This document shows, in pieces, positions 4,451 through 64,000 of a stretch of 64,000 nt of DNA. Origin of the DNA: an uncultured Chloroflexia bacterium (GTDB taxonomy: Bacteria; Chloroflexota; Limnocylindria; Limnocylindrales; CSP1-4). The notes beneath the pieces were generated by a model. It did not search any database. It was not told the origin of the DNA and saw only the letters and a list, made by a program, of their open reading frames with translations. The DNA is taken from NCBI GenBank assembly GCA_963713975.1, contig OY970218.1, positions 800,001 to 864,000 on the forward strand, read 5' to 3'. Position numbers and translations under genes: made by a program. Position 1 is the stretch's first letter; every line of letters begins with the position of its first letter.

Positions 4451-6451
4451 ATGACCGCTGTCCATCGTCCGCGCATCGTGCGGGCCATCCTCGCCGCCGC
4501 GATCCTGATCAGCCTTGTCGCCGGCACGACGAATGCCGGTGTGCCGCATGCGAGGCGCTACCACCCCGGCGGCAAGATCACGCTGGACACCAACCTGCGG
4601 TCGAGGAGCGGGGTCTCGGCCTGGGCCATCGACGAGTATCTCAAGGCGCATACGCCGCTGCCGCCGCTCGGGACCGCCTTCCTCGCTGCGGAGCGGAAGT
4701 ACAAGGTGAACGCGCGGTTCCTCCTGGCGGCCGCGCTCCACGAGTCGGGCTGGGGCTCCAGCTACATCTCGCGCGTCAAGCACAACCTGTTCGGCCTCAA
4801 CGCCTACGACCGCGACCCGTTCCGCTATGCCAGTGCCCACGCCTCGTACGCCGCGGGCATCAAGGCGACAGCGAAGTTCATCAGGGATTCGTACCTGACG
4901 CCGGGTGGCCGCTGGTGGGGCGGCCAGCCGACGCTCCGGAGCATGCAGCAGTACTGGTCTTCGTCCGGGCGCTGGGGGGAGGCCGTGAGCCGGATCGCGA
5001 GCTCGCTGCGCCTCGGCTCCCTGGCCCGTCGGAAGATCGACTTCGCTGCCCCCGTCGCGACCGGCCTGGTGCACGGCGCCGAGCGGACTTCGGTCCGGCT
5101 CGCATGGTCCGGCGGCGCCATCCCCGCAGGGATCTCGTTCGTCGCGACCTGGCGCCCGATCGAGTTGGACTCGGCGCTCACCCCCGCCACGATGTCGAGT
5201 CCGGCCAGCCTGGACCCGGGCGTCGCCGGCGCCATGGCGGCCTCGGCGTCACGCGCAACCGTTGGAAGCGGGTCGTCCGCCACGCCGCCATCCGTGACCG
5301 TCCCGGGGACGAGCGCACCCAGGACCGTCGTGGCACGCAGGATCCGGACCGGCGCCCACTCCATCACCCTCGCGGTGACAGCACCGCGTGAACCGGGGCG
5401 GTACGCGCTTCACGTCGAGATGAGAGACACCGGGCGGGGCACGCTGCCGGCTCGCGAGCGAGTCCGCATCCCGGGTGTCGAGGTCCGCGTCTTTGGCAAG
5501 CGTGCGGTGAGCTTCGACGTGGAGCCCAGCGCCGACGGCACCGGCGCCATCGTCCGGATCACGAACGCCGGGCTGGTCACGATCCCGGGGATCCCGAGCC
5601 TGGGCCTGTCCGCAGCCAGCTACGCCGCGGAGGCCGCGCGTTCGATCGTCACCGTGACCGCGTCGACCGGCGATCCGGCCGACCGGTCGCCGGTCGACCT
5701 CATCGCCTCGCCGCTGGCCGCCGACCTGAAGCCGGGGGCATCGATCACGGTCAACGTTCCGGGCATCGAGACGACCACCGGTCGGAAGACGAACTGGCTG
5801 TCCGTCGGCTTGGCCGTGGCCGGCGACCACGGCTGGCTCCCGACTTCCTCGACGCGAGGGGTCTGGTTCTCCACACACTCCACACCGGGGGCGGGCACGG
5901 CCGCGATCGCAACGCCCGCGCCAACGACAAAGCCGACACCGGCGGCGACGCCGACTCCCACACCGAAGCCGACTCCTACGCCCGTGTCGAAGCCGAAGCC
6001 CACCCCAACGCCCAAGCCGGCGGCGACATCCACGCCGAAGCCGACTCCCAAGCCGACTCCAAAGCCCAAGCCGAAGAAGGTCACCAGGACCTACTCGGAG
6101 CACAGCGGCGCCATCATCTATCGCGGCGGCTGGGGCGACGCACCCTATCGCGGCTACATCGGCGGCAACGTCGCGTGGTCGACCACCCCCGGCGCGACGG
6201 CGACGTTGACGTTCACCGGCTCCTCGGTCCGCTGGATCGGTCCGAAGGGGCCCACGCGGGGAACCGTCCTCGTCCTCCTCGACGGGCGAGCCATCGCCCG
6301 CGTCAGCATGTGGGAATCGTCCTTCGTGCCGAGATCCGTGCTCTTCCAGCGCTCGTTCCGCGCGTCCGGACGGCACACCCTCACGATCAAGGTGCTCCGG
6401 TCTCCTGGGCGTCAGTACGTCGCCATCGACGGGTTCACCGTCAGGTCCTGA
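4451..6451 (+). CDS. Secreted glucosaminidase-domain (GH73-like) peptidoglycan hydrolase with Pro/Thr/Lys linker and C-terminal beta-sandwich domain
   Basis: Signal peptide; AALHESGWG and HNLFGLNAYD motifs; PTPKP repeats; C-terminal ATLTFTGSSVRWIG...HTLTIKV. Confidence 0.85.
   Translation: MTAVHRPRIVRAILAAAILISLVAGTTNAGVPHARRYHPGGKITLDTNLRSRSGVSAWAIDEYLKAHTPLPPLGTAFLAAERKYKVNARFLLAAALHESGWGSSYISRVKHNLFGLNAYDRDPFRYASAHASYAAGIKATAKFIRDSYLTPGGRWWGGQPTLRSMQQYWSSSGRWGEAVSRIASSLRLGSLARRKIDFAAPVATGLVHGAERTSVRLAWSGGAIPAGISFVATWRPIELDSALTPATMSSPASLDPGVAGAMAASASRATVGSGSSATPPSVTVPGTSAPRTVVARRIRTGAHSITLAVTAPREPGRYALHVEMRDTGRGTLPARERVRIPGVEVRVFGKRAVSFDVEPSADGTGAIVRITNAGLVTIPGIPSLGLSAASYAAEAARSIVTVTASTGDPADRSPVDLIASPLAADLKPGASITVNVPGIETTTGRKTNWLSVGLAVAGDHGWLPTSSTRGVWFSTHSTPGAGTAAIATPAPTTKPTPAATPTPTPKPTPTPVSKPKPTPTPKPAATSTPKPTPKPTPKPKPKKVTRTYSEHSGAIIYRGGWGDAPYRGYIGGNVAWSTTPGATATLTFTGSSVRWIGPKGPTRGTVLVLLDGRAIARVSMWESSFVPRSVLFQRSFRASGRHTLTIKVLRSPGRQYVAIDGFTVRS
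5911..6072 (+). repeat. Coding low-complexity Pro/Thr/Lys linker repeats
   Basis: TPAPTTKPTPAATPTPTPKPTP... within the glucosaminidase. Confidence 0.85.
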
Positions 6452-6485
6452 ACCCAGGTTCGGGCCCGCATCGGCCAGCGAGACG

Positions 6486-7310
6486 CTACTCCGGCAGCGG
6501 TCCGATGACGGCCAGCCACGGGTGCACCAGCAGGTCGAAGGTTGGCGGCGGGATGAGCGTGCGGTAGCGCATCGCCATCCAGACGTTCCAGAGCGCGACC
6601 AGGCCGCGCCGCGCGGCCTCGCCACTGCGGTCGATCGCCTCCGCTGCCCGCGATTCCTCGGGTCGCGTCCTGGGCTTCCAGTCGCCAAGCCATGCGGCGA
6701 TGCCCTGCGGCTTCGGGACAGGCTCGCCCGTCCGCAGGTCTCGCCCGGCGAGGATGCCGCCGACCGTGATCTCGAGCTCCGCGAACTCCTCCAACATCGT
6801 CTCGAGCTCGGGGCGTGGTACGCGCACGCCATCGGTCCAGGTGATGCCGAAGCCGCGGCCGATGTCGGACGGCGAGCCCGCTGCAAGCATGTCCCCAACC
6901 ACCAGCCCTAGCCGCGAGATCTCGTCGGGCGCCAACCTGGCGGCCCACCCGAATACCACCTCCGGCCCTGCGGTCGTCCGCGCCGATGCCGACAGTGCCG
7001 CCGCCCGGGCGAGCAGCGCAGAGGAGACCGGGATCGAGCGTGTCCCTTGCGTGGGGTCGGCGCCGGCAGCGCTGTCACCGTCATCCTCGAGCGATCCCTG
7101 TGTGGCCTCCCGGGCCTCGATCATCGCGAGGAGGGTCCGTGCCCGTTCGGGACGCTCCAGGCCGAGCCGCATGCCGACGCTGAGCCAGCGAGAGTCAATC
7201 GCCTCAAGCCCGTCGGCTCGATTCCCGCCCGGGAGATCCTCGAGCGCCTCGGCCAGGGCGGCGTCGATCGCTCGTCCATCGTCAAGCCTGTCGCCGCCAT
7301 CGGTCGGCAT
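6486..7310 (-). CDS. Hypothetical protein
   Basis: Protein-like composition; GAGGAG RBS before ATG at 7310; no family recognised. Confidence 0.7.
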   Translation of the reverse strand: MPTDGGDRLDDGRAIDAALAEALEDLPGGNRADGLEAIDSRWLSVGMRLGLERPERARTLLAMIEAREATQGSLEDDGDSAAGADPTQGTRSIPVSSALLARAAALSASARTTAGPEVVFGWAARLAPDEISRLGLVVGDMLAAGSPSDIGRGFGITWTDGVRVPRPELETMLEEFAELEITVGGILAGRDLRTGEPVPKPQGIAAWLGDWKPRTRPEESRAAEAIDRSGEAARRGLVALWNVWMAMRYRTLIPPPTFDLLVHPWLAVIGPLPE

Positions 7311-51189: not shown

Positions 51190-52278
51190 CTAGGGGCTCG
51201 CCGGGAGCTCCACGTGAAACGTCGCGCCCTGGCCCGTGCCGGCGCTCTCCGCCCACGCGCTGCCGTCCATCGCCTCCGCCAGCGCCCGCACGATCGCCAG
51301 TCCGATCCCGGCCCCACCCGTCGTCCGGCTGCGGGCCGCGTCCACGCGGTAGAACCGTTCGAACACCGCCTCCAGCTGGTCCGGGGCAAGTCCGGGCCCC
51401 TCGTCGGCAACGGACACCCGCGTTCGACCGGCCGCCCGACCTGCCGTGACGGTCACCCGCGAGCCGTCCGGCGCATGGCGCAGCGCGTTCGAGAGGTAGT
51501 TGGAGAGGATCTGGGCAAGCCGGTCCCGGTCCGCCATCGCCTCGGCACCGGCAGTCGGCAGCACGAGCGCCAGGCCACGCGTCCGTGCCTGCGGTGCGAA
51601 CCGCGCGCCCACCTCGCGCGCGACCTCGGCCGCGTCCACGGCCTCGATCTGCAAGGGCAGCTGTCTCGCCTCGGCCCGCCACAGCTCCGATAGGTCATTC
51701 ACCATCCGTGTCATCCGCGCGGTCTCCGACCGCAGCAGGTTCCACGTCTGGGCCGACGGCTGGATCACGCCGTCCTCCAGGCCCTCGAGGTAGCCGTCCA
51801 GCGTGGTCAGGGGGGTTCGCAGCTCGTGCGCCACGTCACCCACGAGCTGGAGCCGGCGGCGCTCCGTGGCCTCGAGCGAGCCCGCCATCTCGTTGAACGA
51901 CGTCGCCAGCTCGCCCAGCTCCCCGGGCTCGTCCGCGCCGACCCGCTCGGCGTAGTGGCCGCCGGCAACGCGTTGGGCGGCGCGCGCCATGGTGGAGATC
52001 GGCCGCGCGATGCGTGCTGCCACCGCGAGACTGACGATCCCCGCCGTCACCACGCCGATGATCGTCGCGGCGATCAGTGCCTGGCGCATCGCCTCCGTGA
52101 ATGCGGCCTGGGTGGCCTCGCCCATGACCTCGCCCATCGGATCGCCCGGCAGGTGGCCCATCGCGTCCGAGAAGTACCCGGGTCCTACGAGGGTCACGGC
52201 GATCGCCACGGTACCGACCGACGCGGCCGCCACGACCAGGAACGCGAGGAGGAGGCGGGCGCGGAGCGAGCTGGGCAT
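51190..52278 (-). CDS. HAMP-domain sensor histidine kinase (BaeS/CopS-like)
   Basis: Two TMs around a His/Met loop (DAMGHLPGDPMGEVMG), HAMP, HELRTPL, N box, GAGIGL. Confidence 0.92.
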   Translation of the reverse strand: MPSSLRARLLLAFLVVAAASVGTVAIAVTLVGPGYFSDAMGHLPGDPMGEVMGEATQAAFTEAMRQALIAATIIGVVTAGIVSLAVAARIARPISTMARAAQRVAGGHYAERVGADEPGELGELATSFNEMAGSLEATERRRLQLVGDVAHELRTPLTTLDGYLEGLEDGVIQPSAQTWNLLRSETARMTRMVNDLSELWRAEARQLPLQIEAVDAAEVAREVGARFAPQARTRGLALVLPTAGAEAMADRDRLAQILSNYLSNALRHAPDGSRVTVTAGRAAGRTRVSVADEGPGLAPDQLEAVFERFYRVDAARSRTTGGAGIGLAIVRALAEAMDGSAWAESAGTGQGATFHVELPASP

Positions 52279-52994
52279 CAGTCGCCCTCGCACAACCGGT
52301 AGCCAACACCGCGGACCGTCTCCACGAACCGGGGGTGGGCCGGGTCGTCGCCCAGCTTGCGCCGCAGGTTGGCGATGTGGACGTCCACGAGGTGGTCGTC
52401 GCCAGCGAACTCCACGCCCCACAGCGCATCCAGAAACGCCGGGCGACCGACGACGATGCCGGGCTCGCGCGCGAGCATGGCCAGGAGGTTGAACTCGAGC
52501 GCCGTCAGCTCCACGGACGCCCCGTCCACGCGCACCAGCCGGCGCCCCTCGTCGATCTCGAGGCCGGCGGGCACGACCCCGGTGGCGGTCACGGCCCCGG
52601 TGGCGGGCACGACGTGGCCCGCCCGCGGGCGGCGCAGGAGCGCCTTGATCCGGGCGACGACCTCGCGCGGCGAGAACGGCTTCACGAGGTAGTCGTCCGC
52701 CCCGACCGTGAGCCCCATGATCCTGTCGATCTCCTCGCCCCGGGCGGTCAGCATCAGCACGTAGGCGTCGGAGAAGGTTCGCAGCTGCCGGCAGACCTCG
52801 ACGCCGTCGAGCCCGGGCAGCATGACGTCCAGGATGACGACGTCCGGATCGATGCTGCGGACGGCATCGAGACCCGCGATCCCGTCGGCGGCGCTCGCCA
52901 CCGCCCAGCCCTCGCGCTCGAGATAGCCGGTCAGCAGCTCCACGATGGGCGGCTCGTCATCGATCACCAGGATGCGGGCGGGACGCGGCTCCAT
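52278..52994 (-). CDS. OmpR-family response regulator
   Basis: ILVIDDE, ILDVMLP, GADDYLVKPF, VETVRGVGY. Confidence 0.95.
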   Translation of the reverse strand: MEPRPARILVIDDEPPIVELLTGYLEREGWAVASAADGIAGLDAVRSIDPDVVILDVMLPGLDGVEVCRQLRTFSDAYVLMLTARGEEIDRIMGLTVGADDYLVKPFSPREVVARIKALLRRPRAGHVVPATGAVTATGVVPAGLEIDEGRRLVRVDGASVELTALEFNLLAMLAREPGIVVGRPAFLDALWGVEFAGDDHLVDVHIANLRRKLGDDPAHPRFVETVRGVGYRLCEGD

Positions 52995-54351: not shown

Positions 54352-55905
54352 CTAGGTCGGGCGGTCCACGATGGTGATCAGGCCGCCGTACATCCCCATC
54401 GAGCACGTGTAGCTGAGCGTGCCCGCGTCGAGCGCCGGCAGGTCGATCACGTTGTCGCCCTCGCGCAGGCGCATCTCGATGCCCAGGTCGGGCACCACCA
54501 GGAACGCCGCGCAGGACCGGGCCGTGGACGACTCGATGGTCCACGTCGTGGGGATCCCCGCGTAGATCGAGACATTGCCGGGGCTGTACCCGTCGACGTG
54601 CTGGTAGGTGCGCAACTGCTGCGCATCGCCTGCCGGCGCGGCGCCAGGCTGGGTGGCTGCTGCCGACAACGGAGCAGCGTCAGCGACCGCGACGCCGATC
54701 CCTGGAAGGTTGACACCCACGAGGCGCAGCCCCGCCCCGCCGTTGAGGATGGCGAACCCGATGACCACGACGCCGACGAACCGGAGCAGCGTCGGTCGGG
54801 CGCGAGTGGGCACGACCAGTGGCAGGCCGGCCAGCGCCAGCAGGCCCGGGGCGGTTCCGATCGCGAACACCGCCATGATCGCGCCGGCGACGAGGGGATC
54901 ACCGGTGGAGAGCGCGTAGATCTGCACGGCCTGCGTGAACCCGCAGGGGAGGAAGAACGAGAGCGCACCGAGCCCTGCCGCGCGGGTGTCGGAATAGGCG
55001 GTGACCGAGCCATCGCCCAGGCCCAGCCGGCGACCCAAGCCCATCGGCAGCGTCGGCGACCACGTCGCCACCCGCGGCGACAGCCCGGTGAGACGGGCTC
55101 CGAGGATCGTCATCATGATCGCGACGGCGACCATCAGCAGCGCGGTCACCTGGGCGGGCATCGCAACGCTCGCTCCCAGGGCGCCCAGCGTCGCGCCAAG
55201 CACGCCATAGCCGACGATCCGGCCCGCCATGAAGGTCGCCGCCGGGCGCATCCGGGTGAGGAGGTCTTCGTCCGCGCCGGCGGATCCCGCACGGTTCGCC
55301 TCGTAGGCCGCCGAGAGTGCGAGCACCAGGCCACCGACGAGCACCATGCAGGTCGAGACGCCGGCGGCGAGGCCCAGCAGCAGCGCCACCAGGAGACCGC
55401 CACTGCCGAGGTCGCCGATGCCGGAGGCAAGGTTCGCGATCCCGGTCGCCTGGGCGACGACCACGGCCGTCGCGACCAGGAGGATCCCGCCGGCTGCGGT
55501 CGCCCAGACCCTCGCATCACGCTCCAGCCACGGCGTCCGGCCAACCTCGTAGCCTGCGGCGTGGATCGCCTGCTCGATGGCGGCGGGGGGAACGGGCGCC
55601 GAGCTCTCGATGGTGACCCGACCGTGGACCGCCGACGCCGTCGCGCGCTGCACGTTGGGGAGTCGCCCGACGTTGCGCTGGATCCGGACCTCGCAAGACC
55701 GGCAGGTCATCCCCGCCACGGGGACGGTGACGGAGATGACCGGGGACGCGGCAGCTTGAGCGGGCCCGGAGGGGACGCCCGAGCCCGAGGGCCGAGGGGT
55801 CCGGCCCATGCGCGATTCCCGCCGTTCGACGGCGATCCGGTGCAGCTCGTCGGGATCCATGGTGGCCGGAGGGCTCACCGGGAGGCTGGGATCTCGAGTG
55901 GCCAT
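54352..55905 (-). CDS. HMA + DsbD_2/TauE-like membrane + cupredoxin-like domain protein
   Basis: GMTCRSC HMA motif; STC..LVGG and FLPCG membrane motifs; C-terminal YTCSMGMY. Confidence 0.9.
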   Translation of the reverse strand: MATRDPSLPVSPPATMDPDELHRIAVERRESRMGRTPRPSGSGVPSGPAQAAASPVISVTVPVAGMTCRSCEVRIQRNVGRLPNVQRATASAVHGRVTIESSAPVPPAAIEQAIHAAGYEVGRTPWLERDARVWATAAGGILLVATAVVVAQATGIANLASGIGDLGSGGLLVALLLGLAAGVSTCMVLVGGLVLALSAAYEANRAGSAGADEDLLTRMRPAATFMAGRIVGYGVLGATLGALGASVAMPAQVTALLMVAVAIMMTILGARLTGLSPRVATWSPTLPMGLGRRLGLGDGSVTAYSDTRAAGLGALSFFLPCGFTQAVQIYALSTGDPLVAGAIMAVFAIGTAPGLLALAGLPLVVPTRARPTLLRFVGVVVIGFAILNGGAGLRLVGVNLPGIGVAVADAAPLSAAATQPGAAPAGDAQQLRTYQHVDGYSPGNVSIYAGIPTTWTIESSTARSCAAFLVVPDLGIEMRLREGDNVIDLPALDAGTLSYTCSMGMYGGLITIVDRPT

Positions 55906-56148: not shown

Positions 56149-56223
56149 TGGTCGGGGCGGTGGGATTCGAACCCACAGCCTCGTGCTCCCAAAGCACGTG
56201 CGCCACCGTTGCGCCACGCCCCG
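56149..56223 (-). tRNA. tRNA-Pro (anticodon TGG)
   Basis: CGGGGCG/CGCCCCG-ACCA; anticodon arm CGTGC-TTTGGGA-GCACG; T-arm GTGGG-TTCGAAT-CCCAC. Confidence 0.96.
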
Positions 56224-56540
56224 ACAGATTCCGCGCTCGCGAAGCGCATGCGCTTCGGTGCGAGCGGACCGGAGCCTAGGCTACACCGCATGCTGACGGG
56301 GAGGCGACCGACGCTCCAACACGCCCCGCTCCAACGACCTTCTTGCGGCGCGAGCGGCACGAGGCTCCCTGGAATGCCCGAGTTCAACCTGCTCCGAGTA
56401 CAGCGTCGACATCGTCCGCCTGGCCGAGGAGCTCCGGGCCGTGGTGGGTCTGGCACCGGACACTCGCATCATCGAGAATCGAGAATCGAGCATCGTTTAT
56501 CTATTGTCAGCCGGCGCGGGATCTGCCAAGGTACCCAACC

Positions 56541-56615
56541 TGCGGGAGGCACTGACGCGTGGTCCATACCCTGGTCGCCGGGACCGCGCTGAGCCACTGG
56601 CGAGACCGACCCGCA
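56541..56615 (+). ncRNA. c-di-GMP-II-like riboswitch (GAG-type variant)
   Basis: P1 TGCGGG/CCCGCA, kink-turn GGCACTGA...GAGCC, TCGCC/GGCGA pseudoknot; GAGCCACTGGCGAGACCGACCCGC identical to the 18246 copy. Confidence 0.82.
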
Positions 56616-56640
56616 CGTTCACCCCAGGGAGGTTGATCAG

Positions 56641-57198
56641 GTGCGAAGACTCAGAGTCGGCTTGGTGGCGCTAGTGGCCCTCGTAGTTCTTGCCAGCGCC
56701 GCGGTCGCGGTCGCGGGCGACGGCAAGCACGGGATGGGGCGGAGCGGCGATCGCGAACACTACACGGCGATCAAGGTCACGAACCCCAACAATCCAGCCG
56801 AGGTGTCGCGCAAGCTGGTCCGCGAGAAGTCGCCGAGTGCCGTGCTCGACCAGCACATGAAGGCCCTCAATGGCTGCGACTGGAAGGGGCTGATGCAGCA
56901 GTATCCCGACACCTACCAGCTCCGTCTGCCGGGCGGCACCGTGGTCACGGGTCGAACGGAGGCAGCCGCGACATTCGCCGGGTTCGTCAAGCCGCACGCC
57001 GAGGGCGGGCTCTGCGGGATCACGTTCACCGAGCTGTCCCGGCAGGTCACCGGCGGCACGCTGGCCGTCACCTGGGAAGCCAACGCGTCATTCCTGGCAG
57101 AGCCCTACCAGGGCTCCGATGCCTACATCACCGACGACGGCCTGATGGTGTCGATGGTCAGCACCTTCGACGGCGCCGAACTCAAGTTCAAGCCCTGA
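56641..57198 (+). CDS. Secreted NTF2/SnoaL-like protein
   Basis: Signal peptide; AVLDQHMKALN..DW..LM..Y...VVTGR pattern; GGAGG RBS. Confidence 0.75.
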   Translation: MRRLRVGLVALVALVVLASAAVAVAGDGKHGMGRSGDREHYTAIKVTNPNNPAEVSRKLVREKSPSAVLDQHMKALNGCDWKGLMQQYPDTYQLRLPGGTVVTGRTEAAATFAGFVKPHAEGGLCGITFTELSRQVTGGTLAVTWEANASFLAEPYQGSDAYITDDGLMVSMVSTFDGAELKFKP

Positions 57199-57685
57199 GT
57201 GACGCAACTCCTCTGATCTAGCCCGACGGGCTGGCAGATCGGCTGCGCAGCCCGACCATCTATCGACTGCGGACGAGCCGCCCGGGGACCCCCCGGGCGG
57301 CTCCCAAGCATGTGCACCAGCTCTGCCCTCGGCCTGGGGGATCGCCGCTGCCCTGCCGTGGGTCTTCCTCATCGGGTGGTGCTTGGCCTCAGCCACCGTC
57401 CACCGGATACGGCGCAGGGGCTGACGGCGAATTCTCACGCGGACCGTGGCCGTGACAAAGTCCCCACTGGTGGCCACGCAATGGTCCCCGCCCGGATGAG
57501 CACCCCGGGAGCGTCCGGTGGGGCCCCAAAGCGCCGGCCCGAGGCACCGACCGATCCCGGCACGGACGTTGGGATGCTCGCGTCGGGCAAACGCCCGTTG
57601 ACGTCCGGGCTCTGACCGGTACAGTGCGCGGACGCGGCGCATCTTGGCGTGCCGCGGTCGGGGAGCGGAAGGAGCGGCACGGCGC

Positions 57686-57961
57686 ATGGGCGAGAAGGGC
57701 AACGCTATCGAGACCCTCACCGGAACCGGTGCGGTTGACGGCAACCCGCTGGAGGCGCTCGGCGCACTTCCACTCGGGTTCCTCAAGGAGTCGCCGGGCG
57801 TCGTGAAGGACTGGAGCGAGGCGTACCTGCGCTGGCGCGAGATCCAGGACAGTCGCGCGACGATCGCCACGACCGCCGCAGAGCAGGCGCTTGGCATCAC
57901 AACCGATGGGACGGCTGGCAGCGACGGCGTCGGCGGCGCTCCCACCGGGCCCGCCGCCTGA
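57686..57961 (+). CDS. Small hypothetical protein (91 aa)
   Basis: AAGGAG RBS; MGEKGNAIETL...VKDWSEAYLRWREIQD...GGAPTGPAA. Confidence 0.7.
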   Translation: MGEKGNAIETLTGTGAVDGNPLEALGALPLGFLKESPGVVKDWSEAYLRWREIQDSRATIATTAAEQALGITTDGTAGSDGVGGAPTGPAA

Positions 57962-58014
57962 TCCGCGGCGCCTGAACCCGACCCCTCGGCCCCCACCCGC
58001 GTCCCCAGCCCACC

Positions 58015-60666
58015 GTGAGCGGCGTTGCGCTGCCCGTCGGACATGCGCTTGTGCCCGATGCGCTCGTAGCAGCATGCAGTCGCGCCCGACGGTCCCGTGC
58101 GCTCGTGGACGAGCCGCGGACGGGTTCTCTCCTTGGCGTCGAGCACGAGTACCGGATCCTCGGCCCGGACGGCGACGCCGTCGACTTCCGCCACCTCCTG
58201 CCGGTGCTCCCGGTCGCGGGACGGGCGCTGGACCCGGCTGATCGATACGCCATTCGGCTGCCGTGGGGCGCCGTCCTGACTGCCGACGCCGCCGAGGCCG
58301 AGGTCGCGCTACCGCCGCTCGTGGTGCGACGTGGCACCGCGGGCCTGGCGACCTCCCTCGCCGCCCGGGCGCTCGCCGAGCTCGAAGACCTGCTGCCGGT
58401 GCGTCACACCGTGGACGGCTACTCGACCCACATCTCAATCGCGATGCCCACCGATGTCGCCGACGCTGCAGCCGAGCTCTACGTCCGCACCTTCGCGCCG
58501 GCACTGATGCTGTTGCTCGACGGCCGTGACGCGCCCGGACTCCTCGTCCGGCCGCGACCCGGGCGGCTGGAGCTGGGCGGCGACTTCCGGGTTGGCGCCG
58601 GACTGACGGCGGCGCTCGTCTTCGCGCTCGGCTCCGCGCTCGCGACGGCGCGGGCCGTTCGCGAGGCTCACCCGCGGGCACTGCCGCCGGTCGTCGAGGT
58701 CCGCGCGGAGCCGGCGGTGGAGCGCTACGGCTGGTACGTGGACCGCACAGCGTTCGCTGCAGATCTGTACTCGGGCGGCCGGACGACGCCACTGCGGCTC
58801 CGGCGCGGCGGAACGATAGCGGCCGGGGTGCTGCTGGCACAGGCGTGGGCCGTCGCCCGTCGTGAGCTCCGAGGGCGTGCCACCCGCGCGGAGCTCCGGC
58901 TCGTCGACGAGCTCGTGACCGGGCACCGCCCGCTGCCCACGGAGCTCGCTGCGGGCGTCGCTGGAGACCGCAACCCGCGGGCCGTGGCACAGACCGTCGT
59001 CGCCCGCTCGTTCCGGGCACCCGAGGGCCACCTGCTAGATGACATCATCCGGCCCGGGTTCACCCTGCGAGCGACGCTCGCGACCTGGGAGCTGGCGATC
59101 TTCGAGGTCACCGGCGCGCGGCGGGCGATCGTCGCCGTGCCTCGCCGGGAGCTCGGCGCCTTCCTCACCTGGGCCTCTACCGGCATGCTCGACGGTCCGC
59201 TTGCGCGCTTCCTGGCACATCCGAGCCGCGGCGACGTCCTGTGCAGCCGCACCGACGCGCTGGCCGGGACCCGCGCGTGGGATGGGATCGGAGACCCGCG
59301 GGCCCTGATCGCCGACGAGCCCGATGGCACGGGACGGGGATCCGGCACGGACGGCGCGACCGAGGTCGGGCGCGTGCTGGTCGGCGGCGTGCGTGTCGCC
59401 ACGGCCGCCGGCCGCCTCGCCGGGATCGATCTCGACGGCCCGGACCTGCCGGGTGACCGTCCCGGCAAGCGGAGCCGTCGGCTTGACCAGCGACGGGACG
59501 ACCGCGCCGACCAGCACCACGATGCGTCGCCACGCCCGAAGCCCCGACAGGAGGCAGCGCGATCAGTGACCGCGGCAGCCTCGAAGGCCGGGGTGCCGTT
59601 CGCCCCGATCGCCGCCGGGATCGTGGCGGTGGTGGGCATCGTTGCCGTCCTGGTCGTCTCAAACGTGCTTGGCGGGGGGATGCCATCGTCGCCCGAGCCC
59701 TCGCTCGTGGCCGCGGCCGCGGGCGGACCATCGGCCAGCCCGGATGCCTCCGCGATCGCAGTCCCGGCCGCGTCGGTGAGCCCGACGCCGCCGCCGCTTG
59801 GCCTGGCACGCGTCGTGGGTACCTACAACAACGGCGCCGACGACTCGTACCTGATCACCGTGGCGCCCGCCTGTGCCGAGGGCGCCTGTGACGGGACGGC
59901 CCAGGTGATGTCACTTCCCTTCGAGGCAGACGGCCCGCGAGCGTCCGTTGCGTTCCCGTTCGTCGACGCGGCCGGCATCTACTCGGGCGAAGGGACAGGC
60001 CCGGTTCCCGTCTGCCGCACGGCCGACGGCGCGGTGCTGACCGCTTCGCCCACCTACCGCCTCGATGGGTTCCGCCCGACCGCACAGGCCCTGGTGGACG
60101 GACAGTGGATCGCTACCGCGATCGCCGGCACGATCACGGTCGGCCCCGTGTCGACGGCGGTGGCCGGGACCACCTGCTCGTCAAGCGGCTCCTCTCAGGC
60201 CGTGGCGCTCGGCTGGCAGGACCCCGCCGTGACGCCGACACCGATCCCCACCGAGCCGCCGCTGGACCAGGCGCGCTTCGACGGCGACTACTCCCCGAAG
60301 GGCTTCCCTGACACCTTCCGCGTCGCGGCGTCATGCACCGAGGGCCCGTGCCCGGTGAACCTCACCATGCAGTACTGGATGGAGACGTCGGCAAAGCGCA
60401 TGAACACGCTCGAGCTTGCCAACGATGGCACCGGCTGGACCGGCTCGAGCACGTTCAAGGACCTCCGCTGCTCCAATGGCGCCCATGCCAACGTGACCGT
60501 CGACCTGCGTGACCTCCGGACGACCAGGCAGGAGCTGATCGACGGCGTGTGGACCGCGACTCGCCTCGAGGGCGCGTTCGTGCGCAAGAAGTTCAAGCAG
60601 TTCTCCGGGCCGGGCTGCACCGGCGAGACCCAGTCCAGCAAACTGACCCTCAACCGGAACCCCTGA
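58015..60666 (+). CDS. Membrane-anchored protein with N-terminal PafA/glutamate-cysteine ligase-like domain and duplicated extracellular domain
   Basis: GVEHEY, RLPWGAVLTAD..EAEV..PP, GYSTHISI, RPRPGRLE; single TM (~59600-59670); two Cys-containing repeats; start may be 58105. Confidence 0.7.
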   Translation: MSGVALPVGHALVPDALVAACSRARRSRALVDEPRTGSLLGVEHEYRILGPDGDAVDFRHLLPVLPVAGRALDPADRYAIRLPWGAVLTADAAEAEVALPPLVVRRGTAGLATSLAARALAELEDLLPVRHTVDGYSTHISIAMPTDVADAAAELYVRTFAPALMLLLDGRDAPGLLVRPRPGRLELGGDFRVGAGLTAALVFALGSALATARAVREAHPRALPPVVEVRAEPAVERYGWYVDRTAFAADLYSGGRTTPLRLRRGGTIAAGVLLAQAWAVARRELRGRATRAELRLVDELVTGHRPLPTELAAGVAGDRNPRAVAQTVVARSFRAPEGHLLDDIIRPGFTLRATLATWELAIFEVTGARRAIVAVPRRELGAFLTWASTGMLDGPLARFLAHPSRGDVLCSRTDALAGTRAWDGIGDPRALIADEPDGTGRGSGTDGATEVGRVLVGGVRVATAAGRLAGIDLDGPDLPGDRPGKRSRRLDQRRDDRADQHHDASPRPKPRQEAARSVTAAASKAGVPFAPIAAGIVAVVGIVAVLVVSNVLGGGMPSSPEPSLVAAAAGGPSASPDASAIAVPAASVSPTPPPLGLARVVGTYNNGADDSYLITVAPACAEGACDGTAQVMSLPFEADGPRASVAFPFVDAAGIYSGEGTGPVPVCRTADGAVLTASPTYRLDGFRPTAQALVDGQWIATAIAGTITVGPVSTAVAGTTCSSSGSSQAVALGWQDPAVTPTPIPTEPPLDQARFDGDYSPKGFPDTFRVAASCTEGPCPVNLTMQYWMETSAKRMNTLELANDGTGWTGSSTFKDLRCSNGAHANVTVDLRDLRTTRQELIDGVWTATRLEGAFVRKKFKQFSGPGCTGETQSSKLTLNRNP

Positions 60667-60745
60667 CAAGGCACCGGGCGCCTGACGCTCGGCGCGGACC
60701 GATGCAACAACAACACTGGAAGGGGAGGCAGCCATAGGCGCCGAG

Positions 60746-62452
60746 ATGCGGGACGCTCCGAGAGGGCTGCTTCCGATCGCCCGTTGGCTGCCGCGGTACG
60801 ACCGGCGGTGGCTTCGCGCGGACATCATCGCCGGGATCGCCGTCGTCGCGATGATCGTGCCCAAGGACCTCGGCTATGCCGAGATCGCCGGCGTGCCGGT
60901 CCAGAACGGGCTGTATGCGGCGGCCGCGGGCGCGATCATCTACGCGCTGTTCTGCACGTCGCGCCACATCTCGACCGGGCCGAGCTCGTCCCTCGCGACC
61001 GTCGCCGGCGGTGCGGTGATCGTGACCGGCATCACCGGTGACGATGCGGCGCAGCTCGTGGCGGCCATCACGCTCGTGACCGGCGTGCTGTTCCTGGCGC
61101 TCGCCTTGCTCCGGATGGGATGGATCGCCCAGTTCCTCTCGAAGGCCGTGGTCACCGGGTTCCTGGCGGGGGCCGCGATCGACGTCGTGGTCGGTGAGCT
61201 GCCGAAGCTGACGGGAACGTCCGGGGAAGGTGACAACGTGTGGCGTGAGTTCGCGTCATGGATCGGTGGCCTCGGCGAGACCAACCTGACGACGCTGGCC
61301 GTCGGTGTCGTCGCGCTTGCCGCAGTCCTCGCCCTCCGATTCCGGGCGCCCAAGGCCCCGGGAGCGCTCGTCCTCGTGATCGGGGGGCTGCTCGTGTCGT
61401 ACCTGTTCGATCTGGGCGCGCGCGGCGTTGCGCTCGTGGGCCCGGTACCGAGTGGGCTGCCGATCCCACAGCTGCCGAGCCCGGAGCTTGCCCTGCAGCA
61501 CGTCCCCGAGATCCTCATCGCGGCGGTGGCCCTGCTCCTGATCGGGTTCTCGCAGACCGCCGGTGATGCCCGGTCGTTCGCAACCCGGCACCGGTACCGG
61601 ATCGACGTGAACCAGGAGGCCGTGGCCCAGGGGATGGCGAACGTCGGCGCCGGGTTCCTCCAGGGGATGCCGGTGTCGACCAGCCTGTCGGCGAGCTCGC
61701 TCAACGAGTCGGCCGGTGCGCGGACACCCGTGGCCTCGCTCACCACGGGCGTGCTCGTGATCCTGACGCTGATCCTGCTGGCGCCGGTCTTCTCGCAACT
61801 GCCAAAGGCCGTCCTCGGGGCGATCATCATCGATGCCGTCGTGTTCGGGATGATCGACGTGCCCGAGTTCGCCCGCCTGCGCCGCGTGTCGCGGTTCGAC
61901 TTCTGGGTCGCCCTGGCGGCCGTCGTTGGCGTGCTCTCCTCGGGCGTCCTGTTCGGGATCGTCATCGGGATCGTGCTTTCACTCGGCTGGCTCGTCTACG
62001 TGTCCACGAGGCCCGCGATGCCGCTCCTGGGGCGGGAGCCCGGGACGCAGGTGTTCCGCGACATCGCCCTCAACCCCGCCGACGAGACATTCCCCGGGAT
62101 CGAGGTGATCCGCCTTGACGGCGGCCTGTTCTTCGCCACGGCTGAGGCGTTCGATGACCGCATCCGAGGACTCATGGCGGGTGATCAGCGGCTCACCGCC
62201 CTCGTGCTCGATCTCGAGGGCGTGGGGTTCATGGACTCCCAGGGCGCGTCGAAGGTCACGGAGATCCGCGACTTCACGGAAGCGGAGGGCGTCACCCTGC
62301 GGCTGGCCCGGGTGAAGCCGCACGTGCGTGACGTGCTCAGGGCCCAGGGCGTCCTCGACCGGATCGGTGACGACCATGTCCACGGCAATGTCCATCGGGC
62401 GGTCGAAGCCCAGATTGCCCAACGCGCCGATGACGAGGCCACGACGACCTGA
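60746..62452 (+). CDS. SulP family inorganic anion transporter with STAS domain
   Basis: DIIAGIAV...P..LGYA, GLYA, STGP, NQE..AQG.AN, STAS LFFATAE/FMDSQG. Confidence 0.95.
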   Translation: MRDAPRGLLPIARWLPRYDRRWLRADIIAGIAVVAMIVPKDLGYAEIAGVPVQNGLYAAAAGAIIYALFCTSRHISTGPSSSLATVAGGAVIVTGITGDDAAQLVAAITLVTGVLFLALALLRMGWIAQFLSKAVVTGFLAGAAIDVVVGELPKLTGTSGEGDNVWREFASWIGGLGETNLTTLAVGVVALAAVLALRFRAPKAPGALVLVIGGLLVSYLFDLGARGVALVGPVPSGLPIPQLPSPELALQHVPEILIAAVALLLIGFSQTAGDARSFATRHRYRIDVNQEAVAQGMANVGAGFLQGMPVSTSLSASSLNESAGARTPVASLTTGVLVILTLILLAPVFSQLPKAVLGAIIIDAVVFGMIDVPEFARLRRVSRFDFWVALAAVVGVLSSGVLFGIVIGIVLSLGWLVYVSTRPAMPLLGREPGTQVFRDIALNPADETFPGIEVIRLDGGLFFATAEAFDDRIRGLMAGDQRLTALVLDLEGVGFMDSQGASKVTEIRDFTEAEGVTLRLARVKPHVRDVLRAQGVLDRIGDDHVHGNVHRAVEAQIAQRADDEATTT

Positions 62453-63342: not shown

Positions 63343-64000
63343 TCAGTCGAGCACGAACCAGGACACGACGGCCGACGAGGTCAGCGTGGTGTTCAGGTAG
63401 ATCGTGAACTTCCCCGCGGCCGGGACGACGGCCCGGACCCAGCGGCCCGACTCGCTCGTGGCAAGCACAGCGAAGACCTTGCTGGACGTGGTCACGCCGG
63501 CCAGCGCCTTGGTGTAGCTCGACTTGCCCTTGGCCATGCTCTGGCGACCGGACCGGCTGAACTGGACCTTGCCGGTGACCTTCAACGCCAGCTGGGAGTT
63601 CGTCGGAGCCCAGGCCCATACGCCCACGCTCCCCGCGTTGCTGTTGGCGTCACCCTCGACGCCGACGTACCCGTAGCCGATGACGCCGCTGCCACCACTG
63701 CCAAGGACGCCGACGTCGGGACTATCACCCCAGACGCCGGTCGCCGACAGGTTCGGATCTGGGTGGGCTGGAGCCGACCCGAAGACGCCCGTATGGCCTG
63801 TGTGCTCGGGGAGGAACCAGCTTGCATCCGGGGGGCTGACGCTCCAGCCCACCACGCCGCCGCCTCCGGCGCCAGTCCCGAGAACTCCATAGCCGAAACC
63901 CGTCCCGGTGGCCGCGCCGGCGAGGGCCGTACTGTCGGCCCCGGAGTCGGTGACGGAGGTGGTTGCAGTCGTCAGGTTGTCCGTGCCCTTGACGACGTCG
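63343..64000 (-). CDS. Gly-rich hypothetical protein, partial (5' end outside window)
   Basis: Frame open from the window edge; GVxG repeats; C-terminal ALKVTGKVQFSRSG...VSWFVLD. Confidence 0.75.
   Translation of the reverse strand, partial: DVVKGTDNLTTATTSVTDSGADSTALAGAATGTGFGYGVLGTGAGGGGVVGWSVSPPDASWFLPEHTGHTGVFGSAPAHPDPNLSATGVWGDSPDVGVLGSGGSGVIGYGYVGVEGDANSNAGSVGVWAWAPTNSQLALKVTGKVQFSRSGRQSMAKGKSSYTKALAGVTTSSKVFAVLATSESGRWVRAVVPAAGKFTIYLNTTLTSSAVVSWFVLD

Follow-up and report, generated by a model that had tools for sequence, protein, structure and literature searches.

To our knowledge, pupylation is the only protein-tagging system built on a ligase that has the fold of glutamine synthetase (GS), and it has been treated as a peculiarity of the Actinobacteria tied to the proteasome. 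Here, a gene pair is described from a stretch of 64,000 nt of an uncultured Chloroflexia bacterium (contig OY970218.1, positions 800,001 to 864,000; the window in what follows, to which all coordinates refer, on the + strand unless otherwise stated). It consists of a gene for a putative ligase of 883 aa with a GTG start (58015..60666) and, 53 nt upstream of it, a small partner gene for a protein of 91 aa that starts with MGEKGN (57686..57961). By analogy with the pupylation enzymes, we tentatively favour reading the pair as a proteasome-independent, Pup-like modification module of reversed polarity, in which the ligase would activate Glu3 of the partner and join it to an amine. The initial annotation of this DNA had proposed, as a possibility, an undescribed post-translational modification system; no argument for it is stronger than the small upstream gene, which was missed there.

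The superfamily of carboxylate-amine ligases has been delimited by a GhExE signature in the first core strand, acidic residues in the second and third, [HD]x[NH] on strand 4, an Arg on strand 5 and another in the loop before it, and Ex[RK]x2D on strand 6 (Iyer, Burroughs and Aravind 2008, PMC2588565). In the same work, protein-conjugating ligases of the GS fold are separated from metabolite-making ones according to whether or not a small, conserved open reading frame (ORF) is found next to them. The initial annotation held that enzymes of the GS/PafA type are soluble, a statement that is not entirely correct, as a membrane-inserted Pup ligase accompanied by Pup had already been predicted in Plesiocystis and Rhodopirellula (PMC2588565). 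Those ligases are true PF03136 members in which four transmembrane segments are inserted behind core strand 4, and their Pup is of the canonical type that ends in G-[EQ] (PMC2588565), whereas the ligase described here has a single C-terminal transmembrane helix, a large ectodomain and no Pfam match, and the motif of its putative tag is found at the other terminus. Beyond the membrane-inserted Pup ligases, the main account of Iyer et al. (2008) presents two other new ligase families, none of them matching the present one (PMC2588565). A literature search revealed no publication on the ligase family, on the motif or on a PafA-like ligase with such a partner, with the supplement of Iyer et al. 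(2008) outside its scope; in the sources retrieved, 'GEKGN' occurred in collagen peptides and plant proteins.

The closest fold to that of the ligase is that of PafA and Dop. An AlphaFold2 model of aa 25-480, built on an alignment of 102 sequences, reached a mean pLDDT of 89.7 and a pTM of 0.89, with pLDDT above 90 in the ligase domain through model residue ~410 and low confidence only at residues 1-4 and 415-456. When this model was compared with the PDB by Foldseek, the best matches were Dop structures (5lrt, E=9.4e-9; 7oxy_A, E=9.9e-9; probability 1.0), aligned over ~500 columns with a TM-score of 0.50 for both query and target, followed by PafA (4bjr_B, E=1.3e-8), in such a way that the Dop and PafA matches spanned E values from 9e-9 to 2e-7. 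YbdK-type GCS2 enzymes came next (1tt4, E=1e-4; 1r8g, E=3.3e-4; TMt 0.43-0.45), and glutamine synthetases, GmaS and gamma-glutamylcysteine ligases (gamma-GCL) ranked below YbdK (E 1e-3 to 1e-2); the 13 PDB chains at E<=0.001 were all Dop, PafA or YbdK-type. The GS/GCS-like fold proposed in the initial annotation was thus recovered by prediction, with this order of likeness. Only weak amidoligase / COOH-NH2 ligase matches were found in a viral structure library (best E 4.7e-3, TMq 0.25), and the 12 clusters closest to it in the ESM Atlas were unnamed, the first named ones being Pup_ligase, GCS2 and COOH-NH2_lig at 0.85, to be taken at the level of a lead only. The GCS2/YbdK enzymes (PF04107; 1r8g, 1tt4) share the superfamily fold and the core motifs with the ligase, but they are smaller, soluble ligases of small molecules without a partner ORF and rank below Dop/PafA, whereas the phage amidoligases or COOH-NH2 ligases (PF14395, Amidoligase_2), of the same superfamily and of weak similarity, are soluble and have no EKGN partner.

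The conserved, predictedly cytoplasmic domain of the GS-fold, PafA/Dop-like type, as outlined by phmmer, AlphaFold2 and Foldseek, extends over aa ~33-445 (58111..59349), about 415 aa instead of the N-terminal ~310 aa first assigned to it. In the model, six core strands follow one another in order and a long helix comes behind strand 3 and behind strand 6, a succession of elements that agrees with the superfamily core (PMC2588565), and model residues ~320-410 make up a C-terminal sub-domain of the beta/alpha type; in PafA and Dop, a GS-like N-domain is combined with a small C-terminal domain that closes the active site (PMC8599861). The acidic and basic motifs of the ligase are located on consecutive core strands, in the order given for the superfamily (PMC2588565). 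Core strand 1, GVEHEY (aa 41-46, 58135..58152), contains the GhExE signature as G41-V-E43-H-E45, in model strand 15-25. Strands 2 and 3, VLTAD-AA-EAEVA (58273..58308), provide the acidic residues, with D91 in the strand of aa 87-91 and both E94 and E96 in that of aa 94-98; the longer motifs RLPWGAVLTAD and EAEVALPP, to which they belong, occupy aa 81-91 and 94-101. Strand 4 (aa 132-143) contains GYSTHISI (aa 135-142, 58417..58440), where S137-T138-H139-I140-S141 reads SxH or HxS compared to the [HD]x[NH] of the superfamily. In strands 5 and 6, RPRPGRLELGGD (58549..58584; R179, R181, R184, E186 and D190), the expected Arg is represented by R179 and R181 of strand 5 (aa 175-181), within RPRPGRLE (aa 179-186), and in part also the loop Arg, by R170 ('DR' in the consensus, conserved below 90%), whereas R184-L-E186-L-G-G-D190 of strand 6 reads Ex3[DE] instead of Ex[RK]x2D. 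The reading frame and all the motifs quoted in the initial annotation could be located as described.

Conservation was read from the same 102-sequence alignment, in which full-length numbering equals alignment position + 24. Residues G41, E45, G85, E96, S137, G175, R181, R184, E186, R237, G239, R256 and W358 were invariant, and E43, D57, F58, D73, P74, D76, D91, E94, T138, H139, R179 and E435 were conserved in at least 90% of the sequences. Therefore, the motifs are not a product of chance. GhExE, the strand-2 Asp, the acidic strand 3 and the Arg-rich strand 5 are shared with PafA and Dop, and the distance between the first two elements allows a further comparison. Counted from GxExE (its first Glu) to the Asp of strand 2, this distance is 47 aa in 59 of 79 family rows and 48 aa in another 16, and the window ligase has 48 (E43-D91); in rows labelled as PafA or Dop by our own regular expression, a spacing of 48 was seen in 11 of 12 for PafA, and one of 76 in 17 of 18 for Dop. 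The ligase family thus has the spacing of PafA and lacks the Dop-loop insertion.

At the level of sequence, no match of the ligase to Pfam or NCBIfam was found even at E<=10, Pup_ligase (PF03136) and GCS2 (PF04107) included, so that by these models Pfam Pup_ligase does not include the protein. Searches of PDB sequences gave no match with the single protein (phmmer) and only low-complexity noise with the 102-sequence profile (E at least 0.38), and the alignment by hhalign of the family profile with 30 PafA/Dop sequences, a target of low diversity, covered 11 columns around GxExEY with E=0.06.

With respect to the start of the ligase, an alternative in-frame GTG at 58105 is the one used in the database version (853 aa, 30 codons shorter). 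As a homologue of 56% identity begins MSGLAL..., similarly to the VSGVAL... of the window, the start at 58015 is favoured, although it is still uncertain; no obvious Shine-Dalgarno sequence was seen before either of them. A single strongly hydrophobic segment was found, at aa ~527-552 (59593..59670), with a maximum of 2.81 over 19 residues on the Kyte-Doolittle scale, preceded by a charged linker, in agreement with the initial annotation. According to the positive-inside rule, basic residues accumulate on the cytoplasmic side of a membrane helix, and Lys and Arg numbered 14 in the 60 aa before the helix and 1 in the 60 aa after it, so the N-terminal domain is predicted to be cytoplasmic and the C-terminal part to lie outside. 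About 40 aa before the helix, in a basic linker modelled with low confidence, there is a juxtamembrane DRPGKR motif (59455..59472) that includes K485, whose R, G and K columns were at least 90% conserved in the family alignment. A motif of the GK type preceded the helix in 67 of 90 homologues with a transmembrane segment, at a median distance of 35 aa, and the Acidimicrobiia ligases carry the variant RRNK.RR.

The part predicted to lie outside the cell contains two repeats, at aa ~599-735 (59809..60219) and aa ~754-881 (60274..60657), which had been recognised initially as homologous and Cys-containing and which are indeed homologous to each other (BLASTP E=3e-7, 28% identity over 117 columns), with four Cys each (620, 625, 667 and 721; 774, 779, 819 and 868), all eight of them invariant in the 6 aligned sequences. 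An AlphaFold2 model from these 6 sequences only (pLDDT 82.2, pTM 0.47) folded the ectodomain as two all-beta domains, predicted to be barrels. Single barrels were matched by Foldseek to streptavidin/avidin monomers with TMt 0.54-0.56 and probability 0.99-1.0, at marginal E values of 0.03-0.08, and there was one lipocalin match, the best E overall being 3e-4. As a lead from modelling, the ectodomain may consist of two tandem ligand-binding barrels similar to those of the calycins (avidin/streptavidin, lipocalins), which are up-and-down barrels of eight strands.

To place this architecture in its family, the ligase was compared by phmmer with 1.84 billion representative sequences clustered at 50% identity, an exhaustive search in which 696 clusters passed E<=0.001 and 410 of them E<=1e-30; their common core corresponds to query aa ~33-445. 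Their names in the source databases were uninformative, and the family is unnamed. From 174 homologues retrieved, 137 matched both strict regular expressions and 96 of these were long enough to be judged. A hydrophobic helix followed the domain in 90 of the 96, exactly one in 86, at a hydrophobicity threshold of 1.9 that also flagged stretches of the catalytic domain in 17 proteins, which were regarded as false positives. The ectodomains had a median length of ~200 aa (range 105-649). Among 61 members, the N-terminal domain had no Pfam match in any, whereas C-terminal domains included TIG (2), VHL-beta (2), He_PIG, Big_9, PD40 and a sub-threshold DUF3558. When the ligases were examined in their genomic loci, a transmembrane helix was present in 47 of 79; of the 32 without it, 3 were cut by the contig end, and the complete soluble forms measured ~400-440 aa, apart from a short form of ~270 aa. 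Therefore, the fusion of ligase, membrane helix and ectodomain is real and typical, albeit not universal, and the assembly artefact that the initial annotation had named as a possible refutation is discarded.

Bacterial Hanks-type receptor Ser/Thr kinases (PknB-like) combine a cytoplasmic enzyme domain, a juxtamembrane linker, one transmembrane helix and variable ectodomains. The ligase follows a similar topological logic with an unrelated catalytic fold and chemistry. Of the signal-responsive carboxylate-amine ligase with receptor-kinase topology put forward in the initial annotation, the predicted ligase fold, the single helix and the fusion (90/96 homologues) have been upheld, and the responsiveness to signals is pure supposition.

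The named relatives of the ligase come almost all from metagenome-assembled genomes (MAGs) of Chloroflexota, Actinomycetota (many of them Acidimicrobiia) and Dormiibacterota, with a few from Pseudomonadota and Acidobacteriota; the closest is from a Chloroflexia MAG, at 64% identity. The host genome, a single contig of 3.62 Mb and 92% complete, has one copy of the family. With this query, only 3 of the 401 genomes sampled from the phylum had the ligase, including none of 3 of the same genus and none of 20 of the same family, and the stretch 56700-60700 had no DNA counterpart in 5 relatives, from which it follows that the ligase is a patchily distributed accessory gene. A weak match of the family profile elsewhere in the genomes analysed (L002, G000:C1:2736124-2736864, +; E=2e-6) covered the low-complexity linker portion of the profile (positions 354-534), contains an in-frame TAG and is probably compositional noise.

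The small partner gene has several properties of a true coding gene. Its G+C content by codon position (0.68/0.58/0.84) can be compared with that of the ligase gene (0.75/0.58/0.86), AAGGAG lies upstream of its ATG, its dN/dS with respect to the closest relative (L003) is 0.24, with 14/15/39 differences by codon position over 87 codons, and its product is already recorded as a predicted protein (P0178); thus, the ORF is considered real. The protein is acidic (12 D/E, 6 K/R). Neither Pfam nor NCBIfam families were matched by the partner proteins, and a profile of 33 of them retrieved 48 clusters, all named 'hypothetical'. In the subfamily of the window partner (14 sequences), conservation extends over residues ~1-57 and is followed by a variable tail. 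Beyond the first six residues, the partners fall into divergent subfamilies of 36-265 aa, acidic and, in all but one locus, devoid of Cys. The exception is a 51-aa partner (L036:5770-5925, +) that ends in a zinc-ribbon-like CxxC...CxxC motif.

What the partners have in common is their N-terminus, M-G-E-K-G-N in the window (57686..57703), with Glu3 as the residue proposed to be activated. In 43 MGEKGN ORFs the codons varied synonymously at every position (Gly2: GGC 18, GGT 16, GGA 7, GGG 2; Glu: GAG 37, GAA 6; Lys: AAG 35, AAA 8; Asn: AAC 31, AAT 12), which argues that the motif is selected at the peptide level. In 8 loci (L003, L027, L031, L039, L055, L067, L075 and L077) in-frame stops were found 0-5 codons upstream of it, and nothing was conserved further upstream, so that the motif is truly N-terminal. 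In the window subfamily G2, E3, G5 and N6 are invariant, whereas position 4 is Arg in 6 of the 14 sequences. As Arg cannot stand in for Lys as an acyl acceptor, the invariant Glu3 is a better candidate than Lys4 for the reacting residue. Methionine aminopeptidase removes Met before Gly and leaves it before Glu; if this rule applies, Glu would be the second residue of the mature protein in both variants, MGEKGN and MEKGN.

The coupling between partner and ligase was analysed in 80 ligase loci plus the window. ORFs starting with [MVL]G[ED]KG[NSDT] were found at most 1.2 kb upstream of the ligase in 38 of the 80 loci, and in the window. When ORFs starting with M/V/L-(G)-EKG[NA] were accepted anywhere in the flanks, 49 of the 80 loci were positive, 37 of them with the ORF less than 400 nt upstream on the same strand; by position, 37 such ORFs adjoined the ligase, another 7 were more distant on the upstream side and a last 7 were located either downstream or on the opposite strand. 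With MGEKGD, present in two more loci, any variant of the motif was found in 51 of 80, leaving 29 with none. In the host genome, translated in six frames, there is one GEKGN, the relaxed motif has four occurrences, and the single ORF-initial copy is that of the partner gene itself. Two Actinomycetes genomes (6.1 and 3.6 Mb) each had a single match to an 18-nt degenerate pattern, in either case in a ligase locus, and its reversed control had 0 matches there. In the 401 genomes of the phylum the pattern was found in 14, once in each, compared to 8 for the reversed control, and 13 of these matches, in the ~1.4 Gb of the 400 other genomes, were not the window's own: none of the 13 adjoins a ligase, four lie in large ORFs reading GEKGNDGGQFFTPR, one in another large ORF and eight at the head of short ORFs. 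The density of the motif near ligases (at least 38 in 0.89 Mb) is thus thousands of times above this background (~13 in ~1.4 Gb). The ORFs reading GEKGNDGGQFFTPR, a source of false positives that extend for 126-390 aa from the motif in four Chloroflexota genomes (L118, L128, L129 and L130), presumably encode N6-adenine DNA methyltransferases of restriction-modification systems.

The presence of the partner was clustered on a ligase tree, with 11 changes compared to a mean of 23.5 after shuffling and none of 500 shuffles as low. The tree (FastTree) included 72 of 81 rows, after omission of two loci whose recovered ORF had no GxExE and of seven rows below 300 aa, and L053 and L065 were labelled in it as having no partner. 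As the partner accompanies both soluble and membrane-anchored ligases, it is tied to the catalytic domain. The juxtamembrane GK motif was found in 19 of 30 loci with partner and in 10 of 17 without. To look for a conserved third gene, the 4513 ORFs of the 80 loci with 70 aa or more were compared all against all by BLASTP, and the idea was discarded, as the best non-overlapping cluster comprised 8 of the 80; the same clustering revealed two small clusters of upstream ORFs on the same strand, all of which start with MGEKGN.

Some loci depart from the one-partner arrangement. Upstream of a soluble ligase, L009:4316-5929 (+) has three tandem ORFs of 239, 135 and 147 aa that start with V/M-EKGN and is a multi-partner version of the module. 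A short subfamily of ligases, with ~270 aa from GxExE and 50% identity over query residues ~12-287, has the EKGN ORF ~2 kb downstream of the ligase match (~6001-6800) in L048, L068, L071 and L082, and on the opposite strand in L063 and L078.

In pupylation, too, the enzyme gene adjoins that of a small acidic protein with a short terminal motif in which Glu is flanked by Gly, although the polarity differs, with a C-terminal G-G-[EQ] in Pup compared to the N-terminal G-E-(K/R)-G-N here. Pup genes encode 50-90 aa with a C-terminal G-[EQ] and belong to PF05639, whereas the partners described here have no conserved C-terminus and no match to the Pup model. Pupylation is usually linked to the proteasome, whereas in the host genome, 92% complete, Pup_ligase, Pup (PF05639) and Proteasome (PF00227) had 0 matches each, so that PafA and Dop genes were not detected either. 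In three Chloroflexota genomes with the ligase family there is neither PafA nor Dop (no Pup_ligase match), and two Actinomycetes genomes that have the module also carry PafA and Dop. A further difference from PafA and Dop is the C-terminal membrane helix with its ectodomain, in a family found mainly in MAGs of Chloroflexota and Acidimicrobiia. The new elements are therefore an unnamed ligase family, a putative tag motif at the opposite terminus, the absence of a proteasome and a receptor-like architecture, and the archetype, pupylation, is known.

If the pair is a Pup-like module, the 883-aa protein would be a single-pass membrane enzyme, with a conserved Lys in its basic juxtamembrane linker and two extracellular beta-barrels that carry disulfides, and would work with the 91-aa acidic partner, whose N-terminal G-E-(K/R)-G-N would serve as recognition and reaction site. 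The side-chain carboxylate of Glu3 would be phosphorylated by ATP at the ExE/Mg site, as PafA does on the C-terminal Glu of Pup, and an amine would then attack the acyl-phosphate. This amine would most likely be that of a protein lysine, resulting in an isopeptide-linked tag, possibly on the juxtamembrane Lys of the enzyme itself. The self-pupylation of PafA is known (PMC4783102), which makes K485 a conceivable acceptor, though this step is speculation. With respect to Pup the polarity would be opposite, as the presumed reactive Glu lies with the conserved region at the N-terminus and the tail that varies at the C-terminus, and the ectodomain would localise or regulate the enzyme, only the topology and the interchangeable ectodomains suggesting control by a signal. 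We infer such a scheme, from the use of ATP and the reaction at Glu3 to the identity of the amine, the conjugation to proteins and the control by the ectodomain, because of the PafA/Dop-like fold, the intact active-site residues of the superfamily, the coupled small acidic protein with its Gly-flanked Glu and the argument of Iyer et al. (2008) on neighbouring ORFs. A complex of the ligase domain with partner residues 1-70, ATP and 2 Mg was predicted, without controls, with ipSAE values of 0.20 and 0.23, compared to a mark of 0.32, and speaks neither for binding nor against it. A more complete version, in which this would be a second Pup-like conjugation system, independent of the proteasome and evolved within the GS fold, that attaches a small disordered protein to lysines through its N-proximal Glu, with tagging under the control of an ectodomain ligand, possibly self-tagging at K485 as its first step, and signals transduced by covalent protein tagging instead of phosphorylation, looks doubtful to us.

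Several observations weigh against the Pup-like module. No homology to PafA/Dop was detected at the sequence level (Pfam at E<=10, hhalign), the TM-score of 0.50 with an rmsd of ~7 A would correspond to the same fold with large differences, and the strand-4 (S-T-H-I-S) and strand-6 (E-L-G-G-D) motifs deviate from the superfamily consensus. On the partner side, there is no conserved C-terminus and no conserved C-terminal G-[EQ], the 29 of 80 loci without any EKG-type ORF in their flanks showed no EKGN motif fused to the ligase N-terminus either, and the 18-nt pattern had to be rejected as a finder of the module on its own, with 0/13 of its non-own matches beside a ligase. As those 29 loci are grouped by clade, many members of the family appear to lack a partner or to have one that is not recognised. 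Self-tagging receives no support from the juxtamembrane Lys, which is equally frequent with and without partner. The same fold and motif evidence would also fit an enzyme that modifies the partner itself, adding to Glu3 an amino acid, a polyamine, a small amine or an amide group, in such a way that the partner would become a modified regulatory or signalling protein, in the manner of a ribosomally synthesised and post-translationally modified peptide or of tubulin glutamylation. Most GS-fold ligases use small-molecule amines (PMC2588565), and the neighbourhood offers no conserved third gene as target (8/80 loci at best), but partners of 36-265 aa that vary past six residues are more like tags or adaptors than matured peptides, and maturation or export genes are not conserved nearby, for which reasons this explanation is held to be unlikely. 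Somewhat less probable still is a membrane-tethered ligase of metabolites (gamma-GCL-, YbdK- or GS-like) for which the small protein would be a regulator, an inhibitor or an unrelated neighbour. The loci without a recognisable partner would be accommodated by it, and YbdK/GCS2, GS, GmaS and GCL were all significant or near-significant matches of the fold; however, Dop/PafA precede YbdK by about four orders of magnitude in E with an alignment of nearly the whole length, the spacing between strands 1 and 2 is PafA-like, and the tight coupling to an adjacent EKGN gene on the same strand goes far beyond chance.

That spacing also bears on the idea that the enzyme is a Dop-like hydrolase, an amidase or de-conjugase that would remove a modification or deamidate a residue. 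The best and longest structural alignments were with Dop and not with PafA, and both enzymes share the architecture of the active site and differ in few features (PMC8599861, PMC7947786), but the ~28 extra aa of the Dop loop are missing in the family (47-48 vs. 76), Glu instead of Gln is already encoded in all 43 MGEKGN ORFs, so no deamidation step would be needed, and there is no second paralogue in the host genome to act as the ligase, which makes a hydrolase improbable. As for a catalytically inactive scaffold, a pure receptor or adhesin, it is true that catalysis is deduced from sequence and that strands 4 and 6 do not follow the consensus, but residues of the metal-, phosphate- and substrate-binding types are invariant in 102 diverse sequences, as is not expected of a pseudo-enzyme, and we give it hardly any credence. 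The Pup-like module is thus retained, on a tentative basis, as the explanation of the pair.

A large unnamed family of the PafA/Dop fold that is paired with a small protein of its own, and that occurs in genomes where proteasome and Pup are lacking, would mean, if the reading is true, that tagging by ligases of the GS-fold class is broader and older than thought. The pair would also represent a new combination of ligase and tag with an N-terminal handle of 5 residues, with possible use as a conjugation tool, and the association of a cytoplasmic ligase with a membrane helix and interchangeable ectodomains would constitute a new type of bacterial transmembrane signalling enzyme.

Regarding the genomic context, a candidate sigma-70-like promoter (TTGACG-16 nt-TACAGT, 57598..57625), identified by match to the consensus only, lies ~60 nt upstream of the partner gene; in the region 56200-61000 there were 2 promoter-like sites compared to 0.2 expected from shuffles, and no terminator-like site was found there. 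Given the gap of 53 nt, the lack of a terminator and the promoter-like site upstream, partner and ligase probably form one transcription unit. The flanking genes, encoding a SnoaL-like protein, a SulP/STAS transporter and a GNAT protein, are unrelated to the module and are not conserved with it.

A c-di-GMP-II-GAG riboswitch (RF03169) was detected at 56536-56620 (+), with 82.2 bits compared to a gathering score of 40 (E=1.5e-16), directly upstream of the SnoaL-like gene (56641-57198). It was discarded as part of the module, being absent from 5 of 5 related ligase loci checked, and is therefore assigned to the SnoaL-like gene. Genomes of the same genus and family showed many matches of ~70-75 nt to the riboswitch stretch, more than a dozen in one of them (G374), and the host lineage seems rich in this riboswitch class. 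A tRNA-Pro gene (TGG; 56149-56223, -) borders the variable stretch that comprises the SnoaL-like gene, partner, ligase and SulP and may mark an integration site; when the boundaries of an island were sought by DNA synteny with 5 relatives, none could be drawn, as gene order was not conserved and identity was only 68-77%.

Further upstream, 54352-55905 (-) encodes a protein of 517 aa with heavy-metal-associated (HMA), DsbD_2 transmembrane and cupredoxin-like domains. Its neighbours are an MFS transporter and, at 51190-52994, a histidine kinase of the HisKA/HAMP type together with a response regulator of the OmpR type, in what looks like a metal-handling cluster. At the other side, a Gly-rich ORF of at least 218 aa without Pfam match (63343-63999, -) runs off the end of the window and has 74% DNA identity to a stretch of one genome of the same genus.

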